Under the pieces are notes generated by a model. The model did not search any database. It was not told the DNA's origin and saw nothing but the letters and a program-made list of their open reading frames with translations. A stretch of 64,000 bases of DNA from a virus. Its lineage: Duplodnaviria; Caudoviricetes. Of this stretch, positions 22,370 to 44,371 are shown piece by piece. Numbering within the stretch: the first letter of the stretch is position 1; every line of letters starts with the position of its first letter. The translations under genes were made by a program, and so were the position numbers. The DNA is taken from IMG/VR virus record IMGVR_UViG_3300037067_020597, positions 10,963 to 74,962 of that record, one strand, 5' to 3'.

Positions 22370-22382
22370 GCGAGGTGGTGTC

Positions 22383-22910
22383 ATTTTAGTTCTAACAGCA
22401 GGGCTCCCAGCTGCGGGTAAATCGAAGGCTATAGATATTCTAGCCAAGCATAAAGAATATACTTGGCATATTATCAGACCGTCAGACTGGGTTCCTGAAA
22501 ATCTAGCTACATTGGATGAGAAAACACAACGAGAATTCAATATAGGTTGTTGGTCTGTTGCACTTGAGAAGTGTAAAGAAGCAATCGCTCAAGTACCACC
22601 TAACGAAATCATTGTATTAGATACGTGTAATTCAAAGTTTAATTCGCACGTATCGATGATAGCTGACGCAAAGAAAGCACTACATAAGGTAGTCTTGTTT
22701 TTCGTTCAAGCCAATGTTGATTTGTGTTTAGAAAGAAACTCGCAGTTGTCCAAAACATTGTTATGTGATTATGTTGATAGATTCAAGTCGTCATTACCAA
22801 AATACAAGAAGTCTTGTGATCTTTTTGTGGTAGTACGAAACAATGGGATTTTGGAACAACTCGAAACAGAATTATATGATGTTTGGAAACGATTGTGCCA
22901 GAGTATCTAA
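22383..22910 (+). CDS. P-loop kinase (AAA_33 / polynucleotide-kinase-like) with a non-canonical start
   Basis: Frame is open from 22338 with ILVLTAGLPAAGKS (Walker A) and later IVLDTCN...R; there is no ATG/GTG/TTG before the TTG at 22512; GAGGT SD at 22372-22376 lies 6 nt before an ATT. Confidence 0.75.
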   Translation: MLVLTAGLPAAGKSKAIDILAKHKEYTWHIIRPSDWVPENLATLDEKTQREFNIGCWSVALEKCKEAIAQVPPNEIIVLDTCNSKFNSHVSMIADAKKALHKVVLFFVQANVDLCLERNSQLSKTLLCDYVDRFKSSLPKYKKSCDLFVVVRNNGILEQLETELYDVWKRLCQSI

Positions 22911-34432: not shown

Positions 34433-35295
34433 TGGCTCTTTACGAATTCACACCAGATGTTCTTGAGACGCCCAGAACTTCAAAGCCTGTACCAGGGCCT
34501 GAGTTGAAGCCAGCTATTGAACTTTATCCAACAGCTGTTGCACAAAGCAGTGATGTTCAGCAGGGGCGTCACAGCCTGTATGGAGACCCGCTCGGAACGC
34601 AGCCGGAGTATGCAGAAGAATTCTTAATGCCTGGGTTTCGTGCGCTAGATGAGGCCATGAAGACCTATTGGTCAGGAATAAGAATTCCAACTAAAGATTC
34701 TTATCGATTTATGCGAATCAAAGTGGCTGGCGGCGATAAGAGTGTGCTTATTTGGCGCGATCAATTGAAGGATGGAAGGGTCAAATTTCCAGTCGCTTCA
34801 ATAAGTCGAATCAGCCACGAATTCAATCCATACAAATTCAGCTCTCCTGCGCTGTTTATGGCTCGCAGATATACAAGCAGCCGCATGGATCGAGTAGCAT
34901 TGATAAGACGCCCTGTTCCTTTTTTGGTTAAGTATACATTAACAATTTGGGCATCATGGAAGAATGATGCAGACCATGCTGCTGCTCAGATTGCTACCAG
35001 ATTCAACCCCCTTGCTGAATTTGTGATGAGTGACCATCATTTACGGGGTAGTGTGCAGCTTAGATATGAAGGCTGGGCTGATACAAGTGAAAAAGAGGCT
35101 GGATTTGATCAAAAAGCCAATACGCGGTATGAATTTTCTATGACAGCAGAAGCATGGCTACCTCTGCCAGAGTTGGTAGTCCCCACAATTCTTGGACACG
35201 TCAACACCGTGAAAGAGCAGACAATTGGCGAAATAGTTGGGCGTGGCAACACGACTAGGCTATTTTATGAACCTGCTAGTAATGCAAATATGTGA
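34432..35295 (+). CDS. Tail terminator / sheath stabiliser, gp15-like
   Basis: FPVASISR, RPVPFLVKYTLTIW, QI..RFNP, YEFSMTAEAWLP; position before the sheath gene. Confidence 0.65.
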   Translation: MALYEFTPDVLETPRTSKPVPGPELKPAIELYPTAVAQSSDVQQGRHSLYGDPLGTQPEYAEEFLMPGFRALDEAMKTYWSGIRIPTKDSYRFMRIKVAGGDKSVLIWRDQLKDGRVKFPVASISRISHEFNPYKFSSPALFMARRYTSSRMDRVALIRRPVPFLVKYTLTIWASWKNDADHAAAQIATRFNPLAEFVMSDHHLRGSVQLRYEGWADTSEKEAGFDQKANTRYEFSMTAEAWLPLPELVVPTILGHVNTVKEQTIGEIVGRGNTTRLFYEPASNANM

Positions 35296-35351
35296 GCAGA
35301 TTTTCTGCGTAAATACCATCATGGGTTATATTATGACTTAGGGTAAAACTC

Positions 35352-35600
35352 ATGAAGCAACATACCAGAGAGACCAATTTTGTCGTTCAGATTTACAACA
35401 GCAGTAGGCAGATGATACCAATATCTGTACGACCACCGGGCGGCGACTTCTTTTTGCATGAACAGACTATCTATTTGAGGCCCGGCAAAACGGTCCGGCT
35501 TCCGAAGAGTTTTTTGAATGATTCGCAAGTGTCTAATCTGACAACTAAGCGGATGATAAGAATTCTTCACGATAGCGAAAAGTCTGTCCCTCAAGTCTGA
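35352..35600 (+). CDS. Small tail-locus protein
   Basis: 82-aa ORF; its TIYLRPGKTVRLP motif recurs in the GT at 22895. Confidence 0.6.
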   Translation: MKQHTRETNFVVQIYNSSRQMIPISVRPPGGDFFLHEQTIYLRPGKTVRLPKSFLNDSQVSNLTTKRMIRILHDSEKSVPQV

Positions 35601-35779
35601 GGGTCATATTACGAATATCTAATGTTCTGTGGGCTGCTATACATATCGAGCGAAATATATAAGAGAACCGCTGTTGGTTTGGCGGCATTTTAGCATTAAG
35701 AGAAATTAAGATTTGCCTTGTCGCCCCTAGTTGTCGGCAAATCTATCGTAGTTTGATACTCGACAACGGAGATTAACAA

Positions 35780-38632
35780 ATGCCCACATATCTCAGCCCT
35801 GGTGTTTATCCAAGGGAAATAGACCTTAGTGCAGTTACTGGTACTGCCGGACCGCTCCGTGCGGCATTTGTGGGGACTGCCAAAAAAGGTCCAATGAATA
35901 CCCCCACTTTTGTGACAAGTGCACAACAAGCAATTGACGTATTCGGGGAGCCCTTTGTCGAGAGTTATTTAATGTATGCTGTACTTGCTTACCTTGAAGA
36001 GAGCAATCAGGCATATATTATTCGAGTCGGCATTGAATGCCAGGATGGACAACCTGAGGAACTCAGCGACATTTGTGTTGACACTTCCGGCAACTGCCTG
36101 AATGGCTGGAATCGAATTCCAGTCTTTACAGGAATTGATTATGGCAAGCTGACGCTAAGGGCTGTGACAGAAGCTGCTCCATTATCATTCCATGACGCCG
36201 GTGTCGAAGATATCACCTTTACCGATGTTAGTGTATCAGTCACTGATGGGCCGACTGATGCTACGTTGAACTTCACAACTGGCACATATGTCAGCGATCA
36301 ATATACCGGTTGCACTGACGACACCTTCTCACTATTCATCACTGGTGCCCCTGATGATGGTTATTCCATTAAGGGTTGTACGTTTAATCTCTTCCGTAGT
36401 AGAGATAGTGCCCTGATGGTAAGTGGGACGCTTGATGAGAAGACAACCGGTGTCAGTACCGATATTGAGATCGGCGACGGTCTTGTTTGCGAAATCGTTG
36501 TAACTGATGGGCGGCTTGACGCAAACGACGTTTTCGGATTTACCGCCAAGCCGTATAACCGAGAATTCGATGTCGAAGTGAATGGCACTGGCACGGCATA
36601 TATCATGCCAGTTGCTGATTACACTACTGCTGACGACTTTATCGAAGCAGTCAACACACTGATAACAACAGAAGAGTATGTGGCTGTCGTTGTCACTGAG
36701 AGCGGCACTGAATATCCTCAATTTCGGACGAAAGTTGCTGGTGATCGTATCCAGTTGGTTGGATCTTGCGCCTTCGCTGCTGAAGTTGGGGTTCAACAGT
36801 ACGTGTATGATATCCCACGCAGCTATCTGTTGGGGACTGATGCAGAGCCGTACTTCATCAATAGCCAGAGCAATCGAGTTTCGATTGATATAATACCAGC
36901 AGACAGAAGCGACACCATCAGTATCGTTTTCACCATTCCGGTTGGTACTAATTTGTCTGTGGCTACTATCGCGGCTGCGATCAACAGCAATGGAGTGTAT
37001 GGCGGCGAGACGTACTTTACCTCGTTTGCTATTACTGCCCCTGGCAACATTCAACATGTCATTGTCTTGACGTCCGACACACACAAGCTCGATCAGTTGA
37101 TGTTGAAGGCGAACTATTCCAATCTCAAGACTTTGATGTTTGCGGAAGAAATCGGAGTGCTTTCTCCTTACACAAAGGCGTATCGCGGGTTCTATGACAG
37201 TCGTGTCTCATTGCCCGCAACTGGCGAAATCACACCGTCTGTACCACTATCCTGTGAGTCAGATCCTAGCAGCGCGCAGTGCGCATTGGATACCGCCTAC
37301 TTTCAGAATATTGTTGGATGGTTTGTGGCGACAAGCGCAGGGACCTGGTTGGATAGATACACTCTGACCCTTCAGTTGCAAACGCAAATCGCCGGGAACT
37401 CTGCCGCACGGTATCAGTTGGTCATCAGCGATCCTGATGGGGCGACAGCCGACAATGTGCAGAACATTAGCTTCGACAAGACCGATGATCGGTACATTGG
37501 AAGTGTTTTGAACCCAGGTACTACTTATGGTGGTACCAATGGAAATGATTTCGTCAATTGGGAGGACCGCCCGTCGTTCTTGAACAATGATGAATTAGAT
37601 CCGACCACCTATGAAGTGCGGCAGCCAGCACAGCTATCGAGCCATACGTTCAGTGGTGGTGCCAATGGTATTCCTACCGATCCGGCATATTCGAGCGAAT
37701 TGGATGCTGCTATCATCGGTAATCCACAGGATTCCAGCGGAATGTATGGAATTCAAAACTCCGAAACTTATGATATCAATCTCTTGATCATTCCTGGAAT
37801 GACATCGGGAGCTGTCATAGGTCAGGGGTTGCAATTGTGCGAAAGCCGTGGAGATGTTCTTTATATCGTCGATCCGCCATTTGGATTAAGACCACAACAG
37901 GTTGTTGATTGGCACAATGGAATGCTGCTGTCAGATTTGTCACATGCCATTAACAGTAGCTACGGTGCTTTGTATTGGGGCTGGCTAGAGATTTATGACC
38001 AGTTCAGTAAGCAAAATATCTGGACTCCACCATCTGGTCAAGTTGCCTCAGTATTCGCAAGAACTTCGAGAGTTGCCGATCAATGGATGGCACCGGCAGG
38101 TATCAACCGTGGTTACTTGCTGACCCCTCTGGCCGTCGAATACAACCCAAGCCAAGGGGAGCGAGATCTCCTGTACGGGTCCGGCAATGCTGTTAATCCG
38201 TTAGTGTCATTCCCGAAAGACGGGATTGTCGTTTTTGGTCAACGGACGCTGCAGCGGACTGAGACTGCTTTAGATAGAGTCAACGTGAGAATGTTGCTAA
38301 TCTATCTAAAGAAGAATCTGGTCCAGATACTTCGAGCATTCGTTTTTGAGCCAAATGATTCGACCACTTGGGCACAAGTCAGAACCCTGATTAACCCATT
38401 CATGGCGGATATCCAGGCCCGTCGTGGTTTGGATGCCTACAATGTGGTTTGTGACGAATCAAATAACACGCCACAAAGAAGAGATATGAACCAGTTGTGG
38501 GTATCGGTCTTCATTAAACCGACACGCGCGATCGAGTTCATCGTCTTGAATCTTGTCGTTATGCAGTCTTCGGCCTCCTTCAGTTCCGAAGAAGTGTTGG
38601 CAGCAGGTGGAGTTGTGGTTAGTGGAAGATAG
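35780..38632 (+). CDS. Contractile tail sheath protein (gp18-like)
   Basis: YLSPGVYPREIDLS, AFVGTAKKGP, YGALYW.W, PPSG, W.APAG.NRG, FGQRTLQ...ALDRVNVR, FVFEPND, KPTRAIEFI. Confidence 0.95.
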   Translation: MPTYLSPGVYPREIDLSAVTGTAGPLRAAFVGTAKKGPMNTPTFVTSAQQAIDVFGEPFVESYLMYAVLAYLEESNQAYIIRVGIECQDGQPEELSDICVDTSGNCLNGWNRIPVFTGIDYGKLTLRAVTEAAPLSFHDAGVEDITFTDVSVSVTDGPTDATLNFTTGTYVSDQYTGCTDDTFSLFITGAPDDGYSIKGCTFNLFRSRDSALMVSGTLDEKTTGVSTDIEIGDGLVCEIVVTDGRLDANDVFGFTAKPYNREFDVEVNGTGTAYIMPVADYTTADDFIEAVNTLITTEEYVAVVVTESGTEYPQFRTKVAGDRIQLVGSCAFAAEVGVQQYVYDIPRSYLLGTDAEPYFINSQSNRVSIDIIPADRSDTISIVFTIPVGTNLSVATIAAAINSNGVYGGETYFTSFAITAPGNIQHVIVLTSDTHKLDQLMLKANYSNLKTLMFAEEIGVLSPYTKAYRGFYDSRVSLPATGEITPSVPLSCESDPSSAQCALDTAYFQNIVGWFVATSAGTWLDRYTLTLQLQTQIAGNSAARYQLVISDPDGATADNVQNISFDKTDDRYIGSVLNPGTTYGGTNGNDFVNWEDRPSFLNNDELDPTTYEVRQPAQLSSHTFSGGANGIPTDPAYSSELDAAIIGNPQDSSGMYGIQNSETYDINLLIIPGMTSGAVIGQGLQLCESRGDVLYIVDPPFGLRPQQVVDWHNGMLLSDLSHAINSSYGALYWGWLEIYDQFSKQNIWTPPSGQVASVFARTSRVADQWMAPAGINRGYLLTPLAVEYNPSQGERDLLYGSGNAVNPLVSFPKDGIVVFGQRTLQRTETALDRVNVRMLLIYLKKNLVQILRAFVFEPNDSTTWAQVRTLINPFMADIQARRGLDAYNVVCDESNNTPQRRDMNQLWVSVFIKPTRAIEFIVLNLVVMQSSASFSSEEVLAAGGVVVSGR

Positions 38633-38638
38633 AGCTTA

Positions 38639-38671
38639 AGAAAAGCCAGCTGGAATCTAGCTGGCTTTTCT
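38639..38671 (+). terminator. Rho-independent terminator after the sheath gene
   Basis: AGAAAAGCCAGC / GCTGGCTTTTCT 12-bp inverted repeat, possibly bidirectional. Confidence 0.8.
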
Positions 38672-38693
38672 TGTATCTAAGATTGTATCGGCT

Positions 38694-40295
38694 ATGGGTA
38701 AATATAGTGGAGGGCCGACTATGATTTTATGGGATAAAACTAAAGAGCAGTTTGGATATGACAAGATATCTGCCAAATCAAAAAGCAAGTTAGTAGTGGC
38801 TTGTGATAATTGTAAAACAGAATTAATAAGAATATCAAGCTCATATAAACAGAAAGTAAAGAAAAACGGCAAATTCTTATGTCATAATTGTGCTACTAAA
38901 AGCACGGATTTTAAAGAGCAGTGTTCTATTAGAGCAAGGCAATTATGGCAAGACGACAGCTACATAAAAAACAACCTATCTGCTGTTAAATCTGATGAAT
39001 ACCGTCAAGCTAAAAGCATTGAGTCTAAAAAGAGATGGCAAGATGCCAATTTTAGAGCTAAGATGATGACGGTTGAGATGACAGCTGCTCGCAAAGTCAG
39101 TAGCTCGAAAACAGCTAAGATTCTCTGGAAAGATCCAAAATATCGTACTAAATTGAGTAGAAGAATTAGTGATAGAATGTTAAAGCGATGGAAACAAGAA
39201 GGATATAGAGAATTTATAGTAGAGGTTGCTAGAGATAATACTACTAAATTATGGGAGGATGGTGTATTTAACGATTCGTTTGGAGAAGAATTTTGTGGTA
39301 AGATGCAAATTATTAATAAGGCTAAATGGCAAGATGAAGAATATCGTCAAAAGATGGCTGTTGTTTTGCTTAATCAACCACGTGTTTCTTCTATACAAAC
39401 GATTTTATATTCTATTCTTGATGATTTGGGTGTTAGATATTTCAGAGAGCACGACAATAGATCTGCTGATGTTGAGTGTCTTATAGGCCCTTGGACGTTT
39501 GATTGTGTCATTCCCAGAGAAAATAAGACGACTTTATTGATCGAATGTCAAGGTGATTATTGGCATTCGCGAAAAGATAGACAAATACGCGACCAACAAA
39601 AATCTTCATATATAACAAATAATCTTTTAGGTCAGTATGAATTGAAGTATTTGTGGGAACATGAATTTCTTTGTCAAGATAAAATAAAAGAAATATTGAA
39701 ATATTGGCTAGGACTCAATGAGCCTGAACTAATCAATTTCAGTTTTAATGATATACAAATTAAAATTACTCCAGCCTTAGATTATAAACCATTATTAGGA
39801 AAATATCATTATCTTCCGAACGCTGGTAGAGGTGGAATAGTTTATGGTGCCTATCTGAAGAATGAACTGATTGCTGTTTGTGCGTTTTCACCATTAATCA
39901 GACAGAACATATCAATTCCAGGATATGATGCTGGTGCTGTTAGAGAGCTATCTCGCCTTTGTCTCCATCCTAAATATCGAAAGAAGAATTTCTTATCATG
40001 GTTCGTGTCTTCTTGTTTAAAGGCACTTGATGATAAATTCAAGTGTGTTATTTCATATTGTGATACAACTTTCAACCATACTGGTGCTATTTATAAAGCA
40101 TGTAATTTCAAATTAGATGGAGAAATATCACCAGATTATTGGTATGTCTCTGATGACGGCTGGATTATGCATAAGAGAACGTTGTATGGGCATGCGATTA
40201 AGATGCAAATGACTGAGAAAGTATTTGCTGAGAAATACAGATTCAAACAAGTATGGGGACAGAAAAAATTAAGATTTAGATACGATAGAGATTAA
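38694..40295 (+). mobile_element. Free-standing Hef-like homing endonuclease: Zn ribbon, NUMOD3-like repeats, Vsr/DUF559-type nuclease, C-terminal Mom/GNAT-like domain
   Basis: CDNC...CHNC; (K/R)WQD.(E/N)(Y/F)R repeats; FDCVI...LIECQGDYWHS; ELSRLC...SWF...ISYCD...HTGAIYKACNF; AT-richer than the flanking tail genes. Confidence 0.7.
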
Positions 40296-40333
40296 CAGGC
40301 TGATTTCTCTGAATCACGAGGCCCACCGCACAT

Positions 40334-40341
40334 CAAACATA
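40334..40341 (+). promoter_or_regulatory. Candidate late-promoter element CAAACATA
   Basis: Intergenic, before tail tube 1. Confidence 0.35.
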
Positions 40342-40458
40342 AGTTAAAAGCAATACGATGTTGGTGGAGCTTTTGGTACTCGAACTTGCGATCTCGCATA
40401 CAATCTCCAGTGCTGAACCTGCCAACATCCATTGTATCATGCGAAGGAGACCCTGACA

Positions 40459-40965
40459 ATTCCTGGATTCAATATATGTGGTACCGGTAGCGGGCCTGCC
40501 GCCAATCTTGAGACTCGCAGAAAGCATCGTTGGGTGTTCCGGACACTCGGAGCAGTGAATCCTGCGGCATTGCTAGTTTTGCAGGCGGCATCACGGCCTA
40601 ACTTCAAATTCGCAGAGCCAGAAATGCACCACGACCAGGAAGTAGCCTACTTCGCTGGCAAGCAAACTTGGGAACCTGTGAGCATGAAATGGTATGATGT
40701 CGAGCAAGATCCCGACGTCTCAGATACCATCTATACCTGGTTACGTACAGTTGTCGATCTGCCGACAGCTATTGTCAATGCGCCATCTGTATATAAACAG
40801 CAAGCTACTTTGGAGATGATTGGGGCTGCTGGGAATACGACAGAGACGTGGATTATGTGTAATGCTTGGCCTAAAGAGGTCAATTGGGGCGATCTTGATT
40901 ATACCGCCACAGATATCTCGACAATTGAAGCAACGTTGAGATACGACCGGGCTATCAAGGCGTAG
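40459..40965 (+). CDS. Tail tube protein (gp19-like) 1, probable ATT start
   Basis: RPNFKF, AGKQTWEPV.MKWYD, W.M.NAWP..VNWGDLDY, L.YDRA; ATT-CCT-GGA-TTC aligns with the MPGF starts of its paralogues; AAGGAG SD at 40444-40449. Confidence 0.88.
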   Translation: MPGFNICGTGSGPAANLETRRKHRWVFRTLGAVNPAALLVLQAASRPNFKFAEPEMHHDQEVAYFAGKQTWEPVSMKWYDVEQDPDVSDTIYTWLRTVVDLPTAIVNAPSVYKQQATLEMIGAAGNTTETWIMCNAWPKEVNWGDLDYTATDISTIEATLRYDRAIKA

Positions 40966-41059
40966 CCCTGCTCTATATCTATTCTGATAGTATATAATTG
41001 GCTTGTTCCATATCAAATCTAAGATAGTGGAACCCGCTCTTACCTTGTATTGGTTTGCC

Positions 41060-41581
41060 ATGCCTGGATTTAACATAGGCCAGAACAATCAAGCTGCTCA
41101 GCCTGGGGCCGCTGTCGAATCGGCTCGCCAACATCGTTGGAAGTTCGCTACACTTGATCCGCTAAAAGACATACTCATATATGCGCATAAGTCTGGCAGA
41201 CCGAAAGTTGAATTTGATAGAGCACAGTTACATCACAGCCAAGACGTTTTGTGGTTTCCTGGCAAGCAGAAATGGTTGCCGATAGATGTTAGTTTCTATC
41301 ATATCATAACAAACACCGATTCTGCATATAAGATTTATCAATGGTGGTCAACTAGAGTTGTTAATCTTGCTTCATCTACTATTAATATCGTGAAGCAAGC
41401 TTGTACGTTGGAGTTACTAAATGGAGAGGGCACATCGATATATAAGTATACAATGTATGGTTGCTGGCCATCTAAAATTACGCCAGATGAATTAGACTAT
41501 GCATCGTCTAAGGTTGGTGAAATCACATTCACATTGGAAATGGATAAAGCCAAAGAAGAGAATCTACAGGAAGCAGAATAA
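41060..41581 (+). CDS. Tail tube protein (gp19-like) 2
   Basis: MPGFNIG, RP.VEF, FPGKQKW.PI...FY, GCWPS.I...LDY, TLEMD. Confidence 0.8.
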   Translation: MPGFNIGQNNQAAQPGAAVESARQHRWKFATLDPLKDILIYAHKSGRPKVEFDRAQLHHSQDVLWFPGKQKWLPIDVSFYHIITNTDSAYKIYQWWSTRVVNLASSTINIVKQACTLELLNGEGTSIYKYTMYGCWPSKITPDELDYASSKVGEITFTLEMDKAKEENLQEAE

Positions 41582-41582
41582 T

Positions 41583-42146
41583 ATGCCAGGCTTTATTGTT
41601 AATGATGTGGGAGGTGGATCTGCCAGCCGAGCGGCAGCTGGAATAAAGCCTGTTTACAACTATACATGGGATATTAAGAGTTTATTTGAAGACCCCATTA
41701 ATACAACCAGGCTTCTGGCCAAAGACGCCACGATGCCAACTTTTACTATTACTAAGGATACTGTAGATGGTTCTTCTCTGACTTATAAATATGCAGGAAT
41801 GGTAGTATGGGAAGATATAAAAGTTACCTTTTATGATGTTGTTCTTGGTGGTGATTCACCGGGGGCCATTCAACTTAAGGCATCCACAATATTTAAGACT
41901 TGGCGCGAAACGGTTTGGTCGAATAGCACTGGGCTGCGTAGCCCATCAGATTACAAAAAAGAATCTAAAATATCAACTTATACTCTTGATTGGCAAGCTG
42001 AATCTGCTTGGACATTGCATGGTAGCTGGCCGAGCGTAGTTAAAGAGGGTGATTTAACATACACAAATACGGACATCAAGGTGGTCGAAGTTACCATTTC
42101 TTATGATTGGGCCGTTTTAGATGAATCTCCTGGCACTACACAATAG
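41583..42146 (+). CDS. Tail tube-like protein (gp19/gp54-like) 3
   Basis: MPGFIV, MPTFTI, YAGMVVWEDI.VTFYD, GSWPS.V..GDL.Y, ISYDWA. Confidence 0.78.
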   Translation: MPGFIVNDVGGGSASRAAAGIKPVYNYTWDIKSLFEDPINTTRLLAKDATMPTFTITKDTVDGSSLTYKYAGMVVWEDIKVTFYDVVLGGDSPGAIQLKASTIFKTWRETVWSNSTGLRSPSDYKKESKISTYTLDWQAESAWTLHGSWPSVVKEGDLTYTNTDIKVVEVTISYDWAVLDESPGTTQ

Positions 42147-42199
42147 TGTTCTGCATAGTAGATACAATTCAGAAATACGCCAGCCACTAGAGGTAATTT

Positions 42200-43225
42200 A
42201 TGCTTGACGATCGCACAGAAGAAGTTGCTTTGACTAATGAGGAATCAGAAGTCAAAGACCAGAAACAAGAGCAGCCTCAAACGAAATCTCTGACAGACCG
42301 GCCAGCTTCAGAGATTGCTAGTATGATTAACGGTGGATCATCTGATATCGACATTATTGATATCATTTCTAGAGCTTCACCAGAGCAGTTAATTCCTTGG
42401 GAAGAAACGACGTTGCCGAGTAAAGGTCTATACTACGGCTGGACTTCGGGCGTTATATCTGTGAAAGCATGGTCATCGAAAATTGACAAGATTTTGGCCA
42501 CTGCCCGGTTAGCTCAAACTGGGCAATCGATCGATTATATGATCAAAGAATGTTGCAAATTTCCAGACGGATTCAACACTCAAGATCTACTAGTTGGCGA
42601 CCAAATTTATTTGCTGTATTACTTGCGTGGTATTACGCACGGCAATGAATATGAGTTTGCAACTACATGCCCGAATCCACAGTGTGGCCAATCTGCAACG
42701 CATTCTATTGACCTTAATGAGTTGGTCAATACTATAGTGTGGGCTGACGAAGGACTCGGATCTGAACCTTTCAGAGTCAAGTTGCCATATTTATCCAAGA
42801 CCATCGAACGAGAGGTTACTGCTGGCATCAGATTTTTGCGAGTGAAAGATGCCAGTCAAATCCAGAGAGCGAAGAAAGCTCAGAATATCATTGGTGGTTC
42901 GAATAGGGCAAGAATCAGGCCAAGAGATCGTGCACAGCAAATCGATCGTAGCCGAGAAGAAATAACGCTCGATGACGTCGTTACACAGAATATCGAAACT
43001 GTGATTGTCGATATCATGGGTAGCACTGATAGATTTAAGATCAGAAGTATCGTTGGCAAGATGCATTCTACCGATATTGCTGTTATCAGGGAATGGCTGA
43101 CAGAGCACACTCCAAGCATTGAAACAATGGTCGAGATGCAGTGTGCTAACTGTGGCGAGACCCATCGCGCTATGTTACCAATAACAGAATCCTTTTTTCG
43201 TCCACAGGTCCCACGAGCAATGTGA
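42200..43225 (+). CDS. Baseplate hub assembly / tail chaperone protein, gp26-like
   Basis: TLPSKGLYY, DQIYLLYYLRGITHG..Y, TCP..C, CANC, LPITESFF. Confidence 0.7.
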   Translation: MLDDRTEEVALTNEESEVKDQKQEQPQTKSLTDRPASEIASMINGGSSDIDIIDIISRASPEQLIPWEETTLPSKGLYYGWTSGVISVKAWSSKIDKILATARLAQTGQSIDYMIKECCKFPDGFNTQDLLVGDQIYLLYYLRGITHGNEYEFATTCPNPQCGQSATHSIDLNELVNTIVWADEGLGSEPFRVKLPYLSKTIEREVTAGIRFLRVKDASQIQRAKKAQNIIGGSNRARIRPRDRAQQIDRSREEITLDDVVTQNIETVIVDIMGSTDRFKIRSIVGKMHSTDIAVIREWLTEHTPSIETMVEMQCANCGETHRAMLPITESFFRPQVPRAM

Positions 43226-43238
43226 AAAAGAGTGGAAT

Positions 43239-43421
43239 ATGCTGATGGAGCAGCAATTCATGCTACGGTGTGGAATAGGCGGGACAGGAGAGTTGACGCT
43301 TTTTGAGCAGAATTGTATGACTGCTGAAGAACGTGCTTGGTGGGCCAAGAAGCTAGAAAGAGTGGCTGAGGAGCGTAATCGCAAGGCACAAGGATCGATG
43401 CCTAATCTACCTCACCAATAA
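43239..43421 (+). CDS. gp51-like small tail/baseplate assembly protein, possibly made as a frameshift extension of the gp26-like ORF
   Basis: F.L.......E...M...ER.WW...L pattern; frame is open back to 43185. Confidence 0.55.
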   Translation: MLMEQQFMLRCGIGGTGELTLFEQNCMTAEERAWWAKKLERVAEERNRKAQGSMPNLPHQ

Positions 43422-43463
43422 TTATTTTCTTAATAAAGTATATTGGTTTTGTTTCAGCCCTAG

Positions 43464-43471
43464 CAAAGATA
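43464..43471 (+). promoter_or_regulatory. Candidate late-promoter element CAAAGATA
   Basis: Intergenic, before 43490. Confidence 0.35.
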
Positions 43472-43489
43472 CTAAAACTGAGGTGCACT

Positions 43490-44371
43490 ATGGCCATATA
43501 CCAACGAATTTCTGCCCGTCGCGGCAATACTGTGCAATTAGACACGCGATTCATGCGTGGAGGGATTGCGACTGCACCATATGCCATTCGTAAGGTGGAA
43601 ATTTATAAGACTCAAGTCATTCCATCGAATCTCATTTCGACTTTTGTTGTGGTCGACCCATGTGACCCAACTTACCCTTCACCCGTCGAATACATTAGGA
43701 CCAACACAGAGCCTGGCTTGTGTGGTACAGAAGGGCAAGAAGGAGTAATAGTTCCTGGTGAGTATCGGCTCATGCTTGATGTACCGCCAGACATCCCAGT
43801 TCCAGACGTTTATTTTGATGTTTGGACATATTTGCCCACAAATCCATGCCTTCTACAAGAAGAATATGGATCAGAAGTGGTCTGTTTAGAGGATACCAGC
43901 GGCTGTATCTATCCCGATTTTGATAATCCAATTGTTGCTGGTATGCTATTGCAAGCCTGTAACAAATTCTGGGTTTATTCTGATGACTGGGATGTCTCTG
44001 ACTCTTTAACTTCTATCAGGCTTGGTTTTGAACCTCTTGATCAGAAGTTCAATCAACCGGAAGTGAGACCGCTGGAAATTGGCATCATGCCGCTCCCATT
44101 GTATGATTATGACTTTAATTTGGTCGCGCCGATATTGCCATATTTAACCGCAACCATCACAATTGAGACCGAATTTCGAGAAGTGCTGGTAACTGATGCA
44201 CCAATGGAGATTGGCCTAAGACAAGGTTCTTATCGCTCAAATCCTTATGTGTTTAGATATATGATTCATACTGATAGGTTCCTTAAAGGTACGTATCAGT
44301 ACAGCATCGTTGTAACGTTGCCAGATGGTTCAACACGATGTAGCAAGAAATTTATTTTAACCATATCGTAA
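43490..44371 (+). CDS. Hypothetical virion structural protein (Ig-like/beta-rich)
   Basis: GAGGTG SD; position in the tail block. Confidence 0.65.
   Translation: MAIYQRISARRGNTVQLDTRFMRGGIATAPYAIRKVEIYKTQVIPSNLISTFVVVDPCDPTYPSPVEYIRTNTEPGLCGTEGQEGVIVPGEYRLMLDVPPDIPVPDVYFDVWTYLPTNPCLLQEEYGSEVVCLEDTSGCIYPDFDNPIVAGMLLQACNKFWVYSDDWDVSDSLTSIRLGFEPLDQKFNQPEVRPLEIGIMPLPLYDYDFNLVAPILPYLTATITIETEFREVLVTDAPMEIGLRQGSYRSNPYVFRYMIHTDRFLKGTYQYSIVVTLPDGSTRCSKKFILTIS

Follow-up and report, generated by a model that had tools for sequence, protein, structure and literature searches.

Tail Module and Question

A 64,000-nucleotide stretch of a 75-kb virus contig, here called the window, carries a tail tube gene that seems to begin with ATT. 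This raises the question of whether the codon starts translation and how it came to stand there. AUU initiation is discriminated against by IF3, and infC is autoregulated in that way. Tail structural genes are usually expressed late. Comparison with related loci indicated that ATT 40459 is probably the working start of the tube gene, and that it probably arrived as an allele brought in with an HNH homing-endonuclease cassette.

About 180 related loci were taken from IMG/VR and JGI metagenomes, and the codon in the column of the initiator methionine (Met column) was read. The relatives of the window are jumbo phages of 364-388 kb. Phage GenBank records held no DNA match to the window, and the protein matches among GenBank phages were only 23-32%, to jumbo phages such as RsoM2USA, XacN1 and Atu_ph07. 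The features of the window are listed in Table 1.

Table 1. Features of the window around the tail tube genes and at the kinase gene, in coordinates of the window.
Feature	Position	Strand	Remarks
Contractile-tail module			Sheath, endonuclease/Mom-like gene, three tandem gp19-like paralogues, baseplate-hub gene
Kinase initiation region	22372..22385	+	GAGGTGG (22372-22378), 4 nt, ATT 22383
Tail sheath gene, ATG start	35780..38632	+	Precedes the tube genes in the module
Endonuclease/Mom-like gene, 533 aa	38694..40295	+	Pfam Mom PF25680; PHROGs 1384, 559, 3339
HNH homing-endonuclease remnant, 35 N-terminal codons	40292..40399	-	tblastn, residues 1-35, 89% identity
L015-like stretch	40296..40475	+	Cassette remnant, 5' UTR and tube nt 1-17; contains ATT
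Alternative in-frame TTG, tube gene 1	40432..40434	+	Shine-Dalgarno sequence (SD) absent
Mini-ORF, five codons ATG...TGA	40439..40456	+	Spans the SD in another frame; stops 2 nt before ATT
SD AAGGAG, tube gene 1	40444..40449	+	9 nt 5' of ATT
ATT start codon, tube gene 1	40459..40461	+	Met column of MPGFN
Tail tube gene 1, 168 aa, gp19-like	40459..40965	+	PF06841, phrog_4542
Tube paralogue 2	41060..41581	+	PF06841; ATG in window
Tube paralogue 3	41583..42146	+	PF06841; ATG in window

Initiation Site of Tube Gene 1

All three tube ORFs matched PF06841 and phrog_4542. Tube gene 1 passed the curated cut-off of Pfam PF06841 (T4 gp19 tail tube) with 30.0 bits against 28.2 and matched phrog_4542 with E=8e-23. 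The tube-family profile matched PDB entry 9ev2, 'Tail tube protein', with E=1.7e-6. The product of tube gene 1 is probably the major tube protein.

The SD and the ATT are separated by the spacer ACCCTGACA (40450-40458, as read from the sequence). CCT GGA TTC AAT follows the ATT directly, and the frame remains open to the TAG at 40963-40965. The original prediction had placed AAGGAG, a 9-nt spacer and ATT at the start of the major tail tube gene, and the coordinates proved exact. It had also described the starts of the paralogues correctly, as ATG CCT GGA TTT (41060) and ATG CCA GGC TTT (41583). Protein homologues of tube gene 1 almost always begin with MPGFN, so the ATT falls exactly in the Met column.

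The sole canonical in-frame codon 5' of the ATT in the window is TTG 40432, nine codons upstream. Initiation there would add nine residues to the N-terminus and turn the ATT into an isoleucine codon. In favour of this, the frame runs from the TTG to the ATT without a stop, and locus L015 has the same TTG together with an in-frame GTG. Against this reading, the TTG lacks an SD, as the original prediction had noted: no GGAG or GAGG was found within 20 nt upstream, and AAGGAG would become coding. The extension is confined to the flank of the window and L015, and a counterpart of the TTG is missing from most other ATT loci. In six of these (L010, L018, L019, L066, L156 and L065), no ATG, GTG or TTG occurs from the in-frame stop to the ATT, and the next canonical codon lies 16-64 codons downstream, within conserved sequence. 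Since homologues moreover begin at MPGF, a start at TTG 40432 was considered very unlikely.

The mini-ORF that spans the SD is not conserved, with ACG in L015 where the window has ATG. A frameshift from it into the tube gene was rejected. The tube frame lies at -1, no slippery heptamer is present and the ATG is not kept in L015. A conserved upstream mini-ORF with reinitiation at the ATT was rejected as well, the arrangement differing between loci.

Start Codons Across Orthologous Tube Genes

Among 116 distinct orthologous tube loci, the Met column held ATG in 85, ATT in 13, GTG in 12 and TTG in six. The other six one-step neighbours of ATG were absent from the column in these 116 loci. This limitation to ATG, ATT, GTG and TTG is the signature of a constrained start codon and not of errors or decay. 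In the orthologue alignment, codons 2-6 change synonymously while PGFNI is retained.

It is hardly credible that the ATT results from faulty assembly or sequencing, or that the gene is dead. Nothing but the rarity of ATT starts speaks for this. ATT is common to 13 distinct loci from several samples, the Met column holds start-competent codons only, and the ORF is intact, with a protein 99% identical to that of L004. L015 comes from an independent sample and has the same flank and ATT as the window, which excludes sequencing error.

A GGAG-type SD was found 6-9 nt 5' of the start in every orthologue, all ATT loci included. The SD duplex energy was -9.6 kcal/mol for ATT loci and -10.0 kcal/mol for all non-ATG loci, compared with -8.3 kcal/mol for ATG loci (Mann-Whitney p=0.0007). 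The comparative start-column data therefore agree with the original prediction that an SD-supported ATT initiates tube gene 1. AAGGAG at a distance of 9 nt would position the 30S subunit, and the initiator tRNA would read AUU as a near-cognate codon, so that the protein would begin with fMet-Pro-Gly-Phe like that of ATG-started relatives. Judging from AUU and AUA sites at which output has been measured, the ATT is expected to yield less than AUG, a deficit that the stronger SD pairing would partly offset. In Staphylococcus aureus, AUU and AUA starts with extended SDs gave about 10% of the AUG reporter output, and up to about 30% in one case (PMC13009471). Context dependence of AUU-initiated mRNAs has been documented (PMC5499595).

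The start codon is not a stable trait. Phages whose tube proteins are 87-99% identical variously start the gene with ATG, GTG, TTG or ATT, and such free swapping among near-identical phages is unlike a conserved regulatory device. On the tube tree, ATT requires nine changes, of which at least four are forced by well-supported branches, and the HNH gene requires 12.

Mosaic Structure Upstream of the Tube Gene

The minus-strand HNH remnant showed where the ATT may have come from. Intact divergent copies of this gene, encoding 331-340 aa, are present in L015 (1948-2940, minus strand), L013, L040 and other loci. They match PHROG HNH families and contain two invariant DH...N motifs with CxxC pairs. 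The window keeps only codons 1-35, and the HNH gene is therefore not functional here. From about codon 36 it has been overwritten by the 533-aa endonuclease/Mom-like gene, which L001 and L004 lack and which combines HNH and homing-endonuclease families with a Mom domain.

The window is a mosaic of two types of sequence. Its backbone resembles L004, which is HNH-free and starts the tube gene with ATG. The 163 nt 5' of tube gene 1 are 83% identical to L015 and unalignable to L004. Over tube nt 1-17, identity is 100% with L015 and 82% with L004, and the relation is reversed for nt 18-507, with 93% identity to L004 and 80% to L015. The informative sites at nt 3, 6 and 15 are L015-like, after which L004-like sites prevail by 78:13 (p about 0.004), placing the breakpoint between tube nt 15 and 18. 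With the flank and nt 1-17 L015-like and the remainder L004-like, the ATT lies within a co-conversion tract, which we infer to span 40296..40475. Donor tracts with a similar 5' bias were found in L040, L011, L015 and L013, with breakpoints within the first 15-35 nt. Endonuclease homing with co-conversion of flanking sequence is an established process (PMC2988022).

As judged from the mosaic and from the association described below, the ATT allele would have come with a site-specific HNH cassette that inserted divergently before the tube gene. Later, the second endonuclease gene would have overwritten the HNH gene and left the 35-codon stump. The same nesting as at 38694-40399 of the window was observed in L066 (1262-2934), a distant lineage, the two Mom-like proteins being only 33% identical. 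The nesting in both loci suggests that the second element targets the first.

The intergenic site between sheath and tube gene is a hotspot of gene gain and loss. In relatives, tube gene 1 follows the sheath gene directly, with a gap of about 115 nt in L001. In L004, the 170 nt before the start of tube gene 1 (3001) contain a 28-codon stump of a further gene, of which L012 has an intact copy (250 aa). A terminator-like hairpin is located at 38648-38666 of the window, 3' of the sheath gene. Searches for RNA elements in the sheath-tube gap gave no candidates. ARAGORN found no tRNA in the window, Rfam returned nothing at E<=1 in 35000-44000 that would indicate a group I intron, and the tRNA-like appearance of 40360-40420 is due to a coding remnant of the HNH gene.

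The motif ACATCAAACATAAG was rejected as a late promoter: it occurs only once in the window and is the reverse complement of HNH codons (LCLMCG). The 15-nt motif ACACATCAAACATAAG was observed 5' of tube gene 1 in HNH-free relatives, at 2905-2919 of L001 and also in L003, L004 and L007-L009. It is likewise the reverse complement of the HNH codons for LCLMCG and occurs just once in the window (40330-40343). Rather than a promoter, this motif is probably a trace left by a former HNH gene, or a site of recombination or a target site. A sigma-70-like promoter was observed on the minus strand at 40431-40459 (TTGTCA, 17 nt, TG-TACAAT; 10/12 matches), facing the HNH remnant, and its -35 box overlaps the spacer and the first base of the tube start codon. 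Consensus promoter matches around 40431-40459 were no more frequent than in shuffled sequence.

Association of the HNH Gene with Non-ATG Starts

A divergent HNH gene adjoins tube gene 1 in 13 loci, and in every one of them the tube gene has a non-ATG start (ATT in nine, GTG in two and TTG in two). The deduplicated loci without a divergent HNH gene have ATG in 81 of 97 cases. L179, in which the HNH gene is oriented in the same way as the tube gene, has TTG. These loci are not independent with regard to the association and represent roughly three cassette lineages; a test of pairs across well-supported branches gave p=0.25 with five pairs only. ATT is found beside both HNH group i and HNH group ii, which share only 48% identity, and group iii adjoins GTG or TTG. 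Mom-like endonuclease genes alone showed no link to non-ATG starts.

The HNH gene is distributed patchily, at one fixed site, among close relatives. A scan of IMG/VR with an HNH profile yielded 15 matches, all on contigs that the tube gene had already brought in or beside the same 5' UTR. The latter were two new loci, situated at a contig edge and adjoining this same tube 5' UTR. A second HNH copy was observed in L019 (600-1463) between tube genes 1 and 2, where tube gene 2 starts with TTG.

Five close-clade genomes in which the HNH gene is intact use ATG at none of their 15 tube-paralogue starts; HNH-free genomes use it at 17 of 36 (Fisher p=0.0008, without correction). Several observations count against the cassette explanation and against the role of the endonuclease target considered below. 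In the close clade, tube genes 2 and 3 are mostly non-ATG with or without the HNH gene. In L010, tube genes 1 and 2 both start with ATT, and no endonuclease lies in their vicinity. The kinase and the one or two other genes with near-cognate starts described in the next section also have no endonuclease in sight.

Paralogues, Kinase and Genome-Wide Occurrence of Near-Cognate Starts

The neighbouring genes of the tail module differ in their start codons. The sheath gene starts with ATG in 41 of 41 loci. Paralogue 2, which has ATG in the window, starts with GTG, TTG, ATT or ACG in most close relatives; across loci its starts were ATG 57, GTG 9, TTG 8, ATT 4 and ACG 1. For paralogue 3, ATG 73, TTG 5, ACG 5, ATA 3, ATT 3 and ATC 1 were counted. 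Many of its non-ATG starts have no canonical alternative. Where paralogue 3 has a near-cognate start, this lies 10-13 nt past the stop of paralogue 2, in a coupled arrangement in which the stop overlaps the SD. This was observed as TAAGGAG or TAGGAG in L007 (4160-4180), L012 (4115-4130), L016, L022 and L023. Several paralogue 3 starts are ATT-ACG or ATT-ATT doublets, which makes the exact start codon ambiguous.

The kinase at 22383 had been named as the second SD-supported ATT start of the window, and this was borne out. It is preceded by GAGGTGG, the frame contains no ATG, GTG or TTG from the preceding stop as far as the Walker A motif, and the start column of the orthologues holds ATT (G003), ATC/ATT (G004) or ATG (G002, G005). 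In L181, the 45 nt 5' of the ATC/ATT kinase start were observed to be a decayed duplicate of the kinase's own 5' end. The duplicate forms a mini-ORF, MLILVCGLSPKEATLS, which holds the SD and stops two codons inside the kinase gene. It resembles a scar of repair and may also favour reinitiation.

The genome-wide scan suggested with the original prediction was carried out on five relatives, which were stitched. Start columns were read for 321 orthologue groups across six related genomes. In 290 groups with a clear start column, ATG accounted for 91%, GTG for 3% and TTG for 1.3%. A relaxed search for near-cognate starts mostly caught the codon preceding the true ATG, and a stricter filter was applied. 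A simple scan for enrichment of SD plus codon, over about 640 kb of loci, mostly picked out the second codons of tube genes and gave no information on ATT. Of about 320 groups, only a few retained credible near-cognate starts, namely those of the three tube paralogues and of the kinase, plus one or two more. The use of such starts is consequently gene-specific and not a genome-wide layer. SD-supported ATC/ATT starts with no canonical alternative were observed in group 244 (G005) and group 404 (G002/G004). One of these two genes is metallophosphatase-like with the N-terminus 'IRFHILGLPH', and the other encodes a small protein and is preceded by GAGGTG.

The original prediction had further proposed that the phage may use AUU codons as a layer of translational control, suppressed by IF3 and, for example, released from suppression late in infection if the host's IF3 becomes limiting or is altered. 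The two SD-supported ATT starts within one window fit this proposal, as does the ATT start of the tube gene, since genes for tail structure are usually expressed late. The discrimination of IF3 against AUU and the autoregulation of infC provide a precedent (PMC9723500). The proposal of a phage-wide layer was not supported, since near-cognate starts are rare and three of the few cases are tube paralogues. Further evidence against it is given by the interchange of start codons between phages with near-identical tube proteins, the invariant ATG of the sheath, which is needed in equal copy number, and the ATT state following a mobile element at tube gene 1. A phage-encoded IF3 was rejected because the IF3 domain (PF00707) had no match in five relatives, two of them about complete. 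The IF3 explanation is thus unlikely.

Alternatively, weak starts could have been selected to tune the dosage of the tube family, for stoichiometry or to avoid premature tube polymerisation. The link to the HNH gene would then be incidental, or would reflect rebalancing after the insertion had uncoupled the tube from the sheath. Non-ATG starts occur in all three paralogues and never in the sheath gene, tube genes 2 and 3 are probably low-copy with near-cognate starts in the coupled arrangement, and AUU or AUA cut the output about ten-fold in S. aureus (PMC13009471). Tube gene 1 does not fit this pattern. It is the most conserved paralogue, adjoins the sheath and is the best match to solved tube proteins, which suggests that its product is made in many copies, and a weak start would be unexpected for such a protein. 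The stronger SDs of non-ATG loci look like compensation and not like a demand for less protein, and the start codon differs between sister phages. Selection on dosage was therefore rated as unlikely, and arrival of the ATT with the HNH cassette was preferred.

A Possible Role of the Endonuclease Target

The association raises the question of why the allele beside the HNH gene is never ATG. The HNH nuclease might recognise the conserved tube 5' end ATG-CCN-GGN-TTY-AAY-AT. As the initiator tRNA inserts methionine at any near-cognate codon, the start codon is effectively a silent site, and because it can be changed without a change of the protein, non-ATG alleles would be immune or escape alleles. 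We tentatively suggest, at somewhat less than even probability, that the HNH target includes the ATG, that non-ATG alleles are immune or have escaped and that their SDs were strengthened to compensate. The alleles ATT, GTG, TTG, ATA and ACG would spread by co-conversion, and self-cleavage would block the return to ATG. Of the tube genes found with HNH group ii, the first alone retains CCN-GGN-TTY-AAY-AT, and its start is ATT. The immunity reading is favoured by the HNH-group data and by the lack of any surviving ATG beside the HNH gene; the one-step reversion to ATG has apparently not survived there. The retention of ATG by tube genes 2 and 3 of HNH group ii counts against immunity. The HNH insertion by itself might also destroy the target, making a change of the start codon unnecessary. 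In a simpler alternative, the ATT may merely hitch-hike with the driving element.

The tube start codon may thus be a battleground in a homing-endonuclease arms race, a possibility put forward with reservation on comparative data from the loci. The unusual start would then point to such an arms race at the DNA level and not to a translation timer. If this is true, a DNA-level selective force shapes start-codon choice, and, once confirmed, start-codon variation could mark endonuclease target sites in phage genomes. The tight link to the HNH gene suggests a cause of start-codon change apart from translation control, namely the drive of a selfish element and possibly immunity. The repeated occurrence of AUU in a probably high-copy structural gene suggests that near-cognate initiation is tolerated beyond the classic low-output regulators. 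Gene callers ignore ATT, ATA and ACG, so tube genes are mis-started or truncated in databases, one homologue being annotated as 'VQLPGF...'.

Comparison with Known Systems

Bacterial genes initiated at AUU or AUA include infC and pcnB of Escherichia coli and cvfC1, ccpN and infC of S. aureus (PMC13009471; PMC5499595). Tube gene 1 resembles them in its strong or extended SD, proper spacing, recurrence in relatives and expected reduction of output. It differs in being a phage structural gene whose product is probably high-copy, in the turnover of its start between ATG, GTG, TTG and ATT, in the linked mobile endonuclease and in having no apparent autoregulatory logic.

The HNH cassette is comparable to the intronless homing endonucleases SegF, SegG and MobE of phage T4. 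In both cases, the endonuclease gene occurs sporadically between two conserved genes, at a fixed site that adjoins a conserved essential gene, and short flanks are inherited along with it (PMC2988022). Unlike in T4, the co-converted tract of the tube cassette includes the SD and start codon of the neighbouring gene, and the linked allele is always non-ATG. In addition, a second endonuclease gene has overwritten the HNH gene of the tube cassette, and it has done so near the same codon in the window and in the distant L066.

The tube genes themselves are similar to T4 gp19 and its paralogues (T4 gp48 and gp54; Afp1/Afp5; Pvc1/Pvc5) in belonging to PF06841, following the sheath and standing in tandem. 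In contrast to that set, the three small paralogues of the window share the N-terminus MPGF, and tube gene 1 is the putative tube-builder among them.
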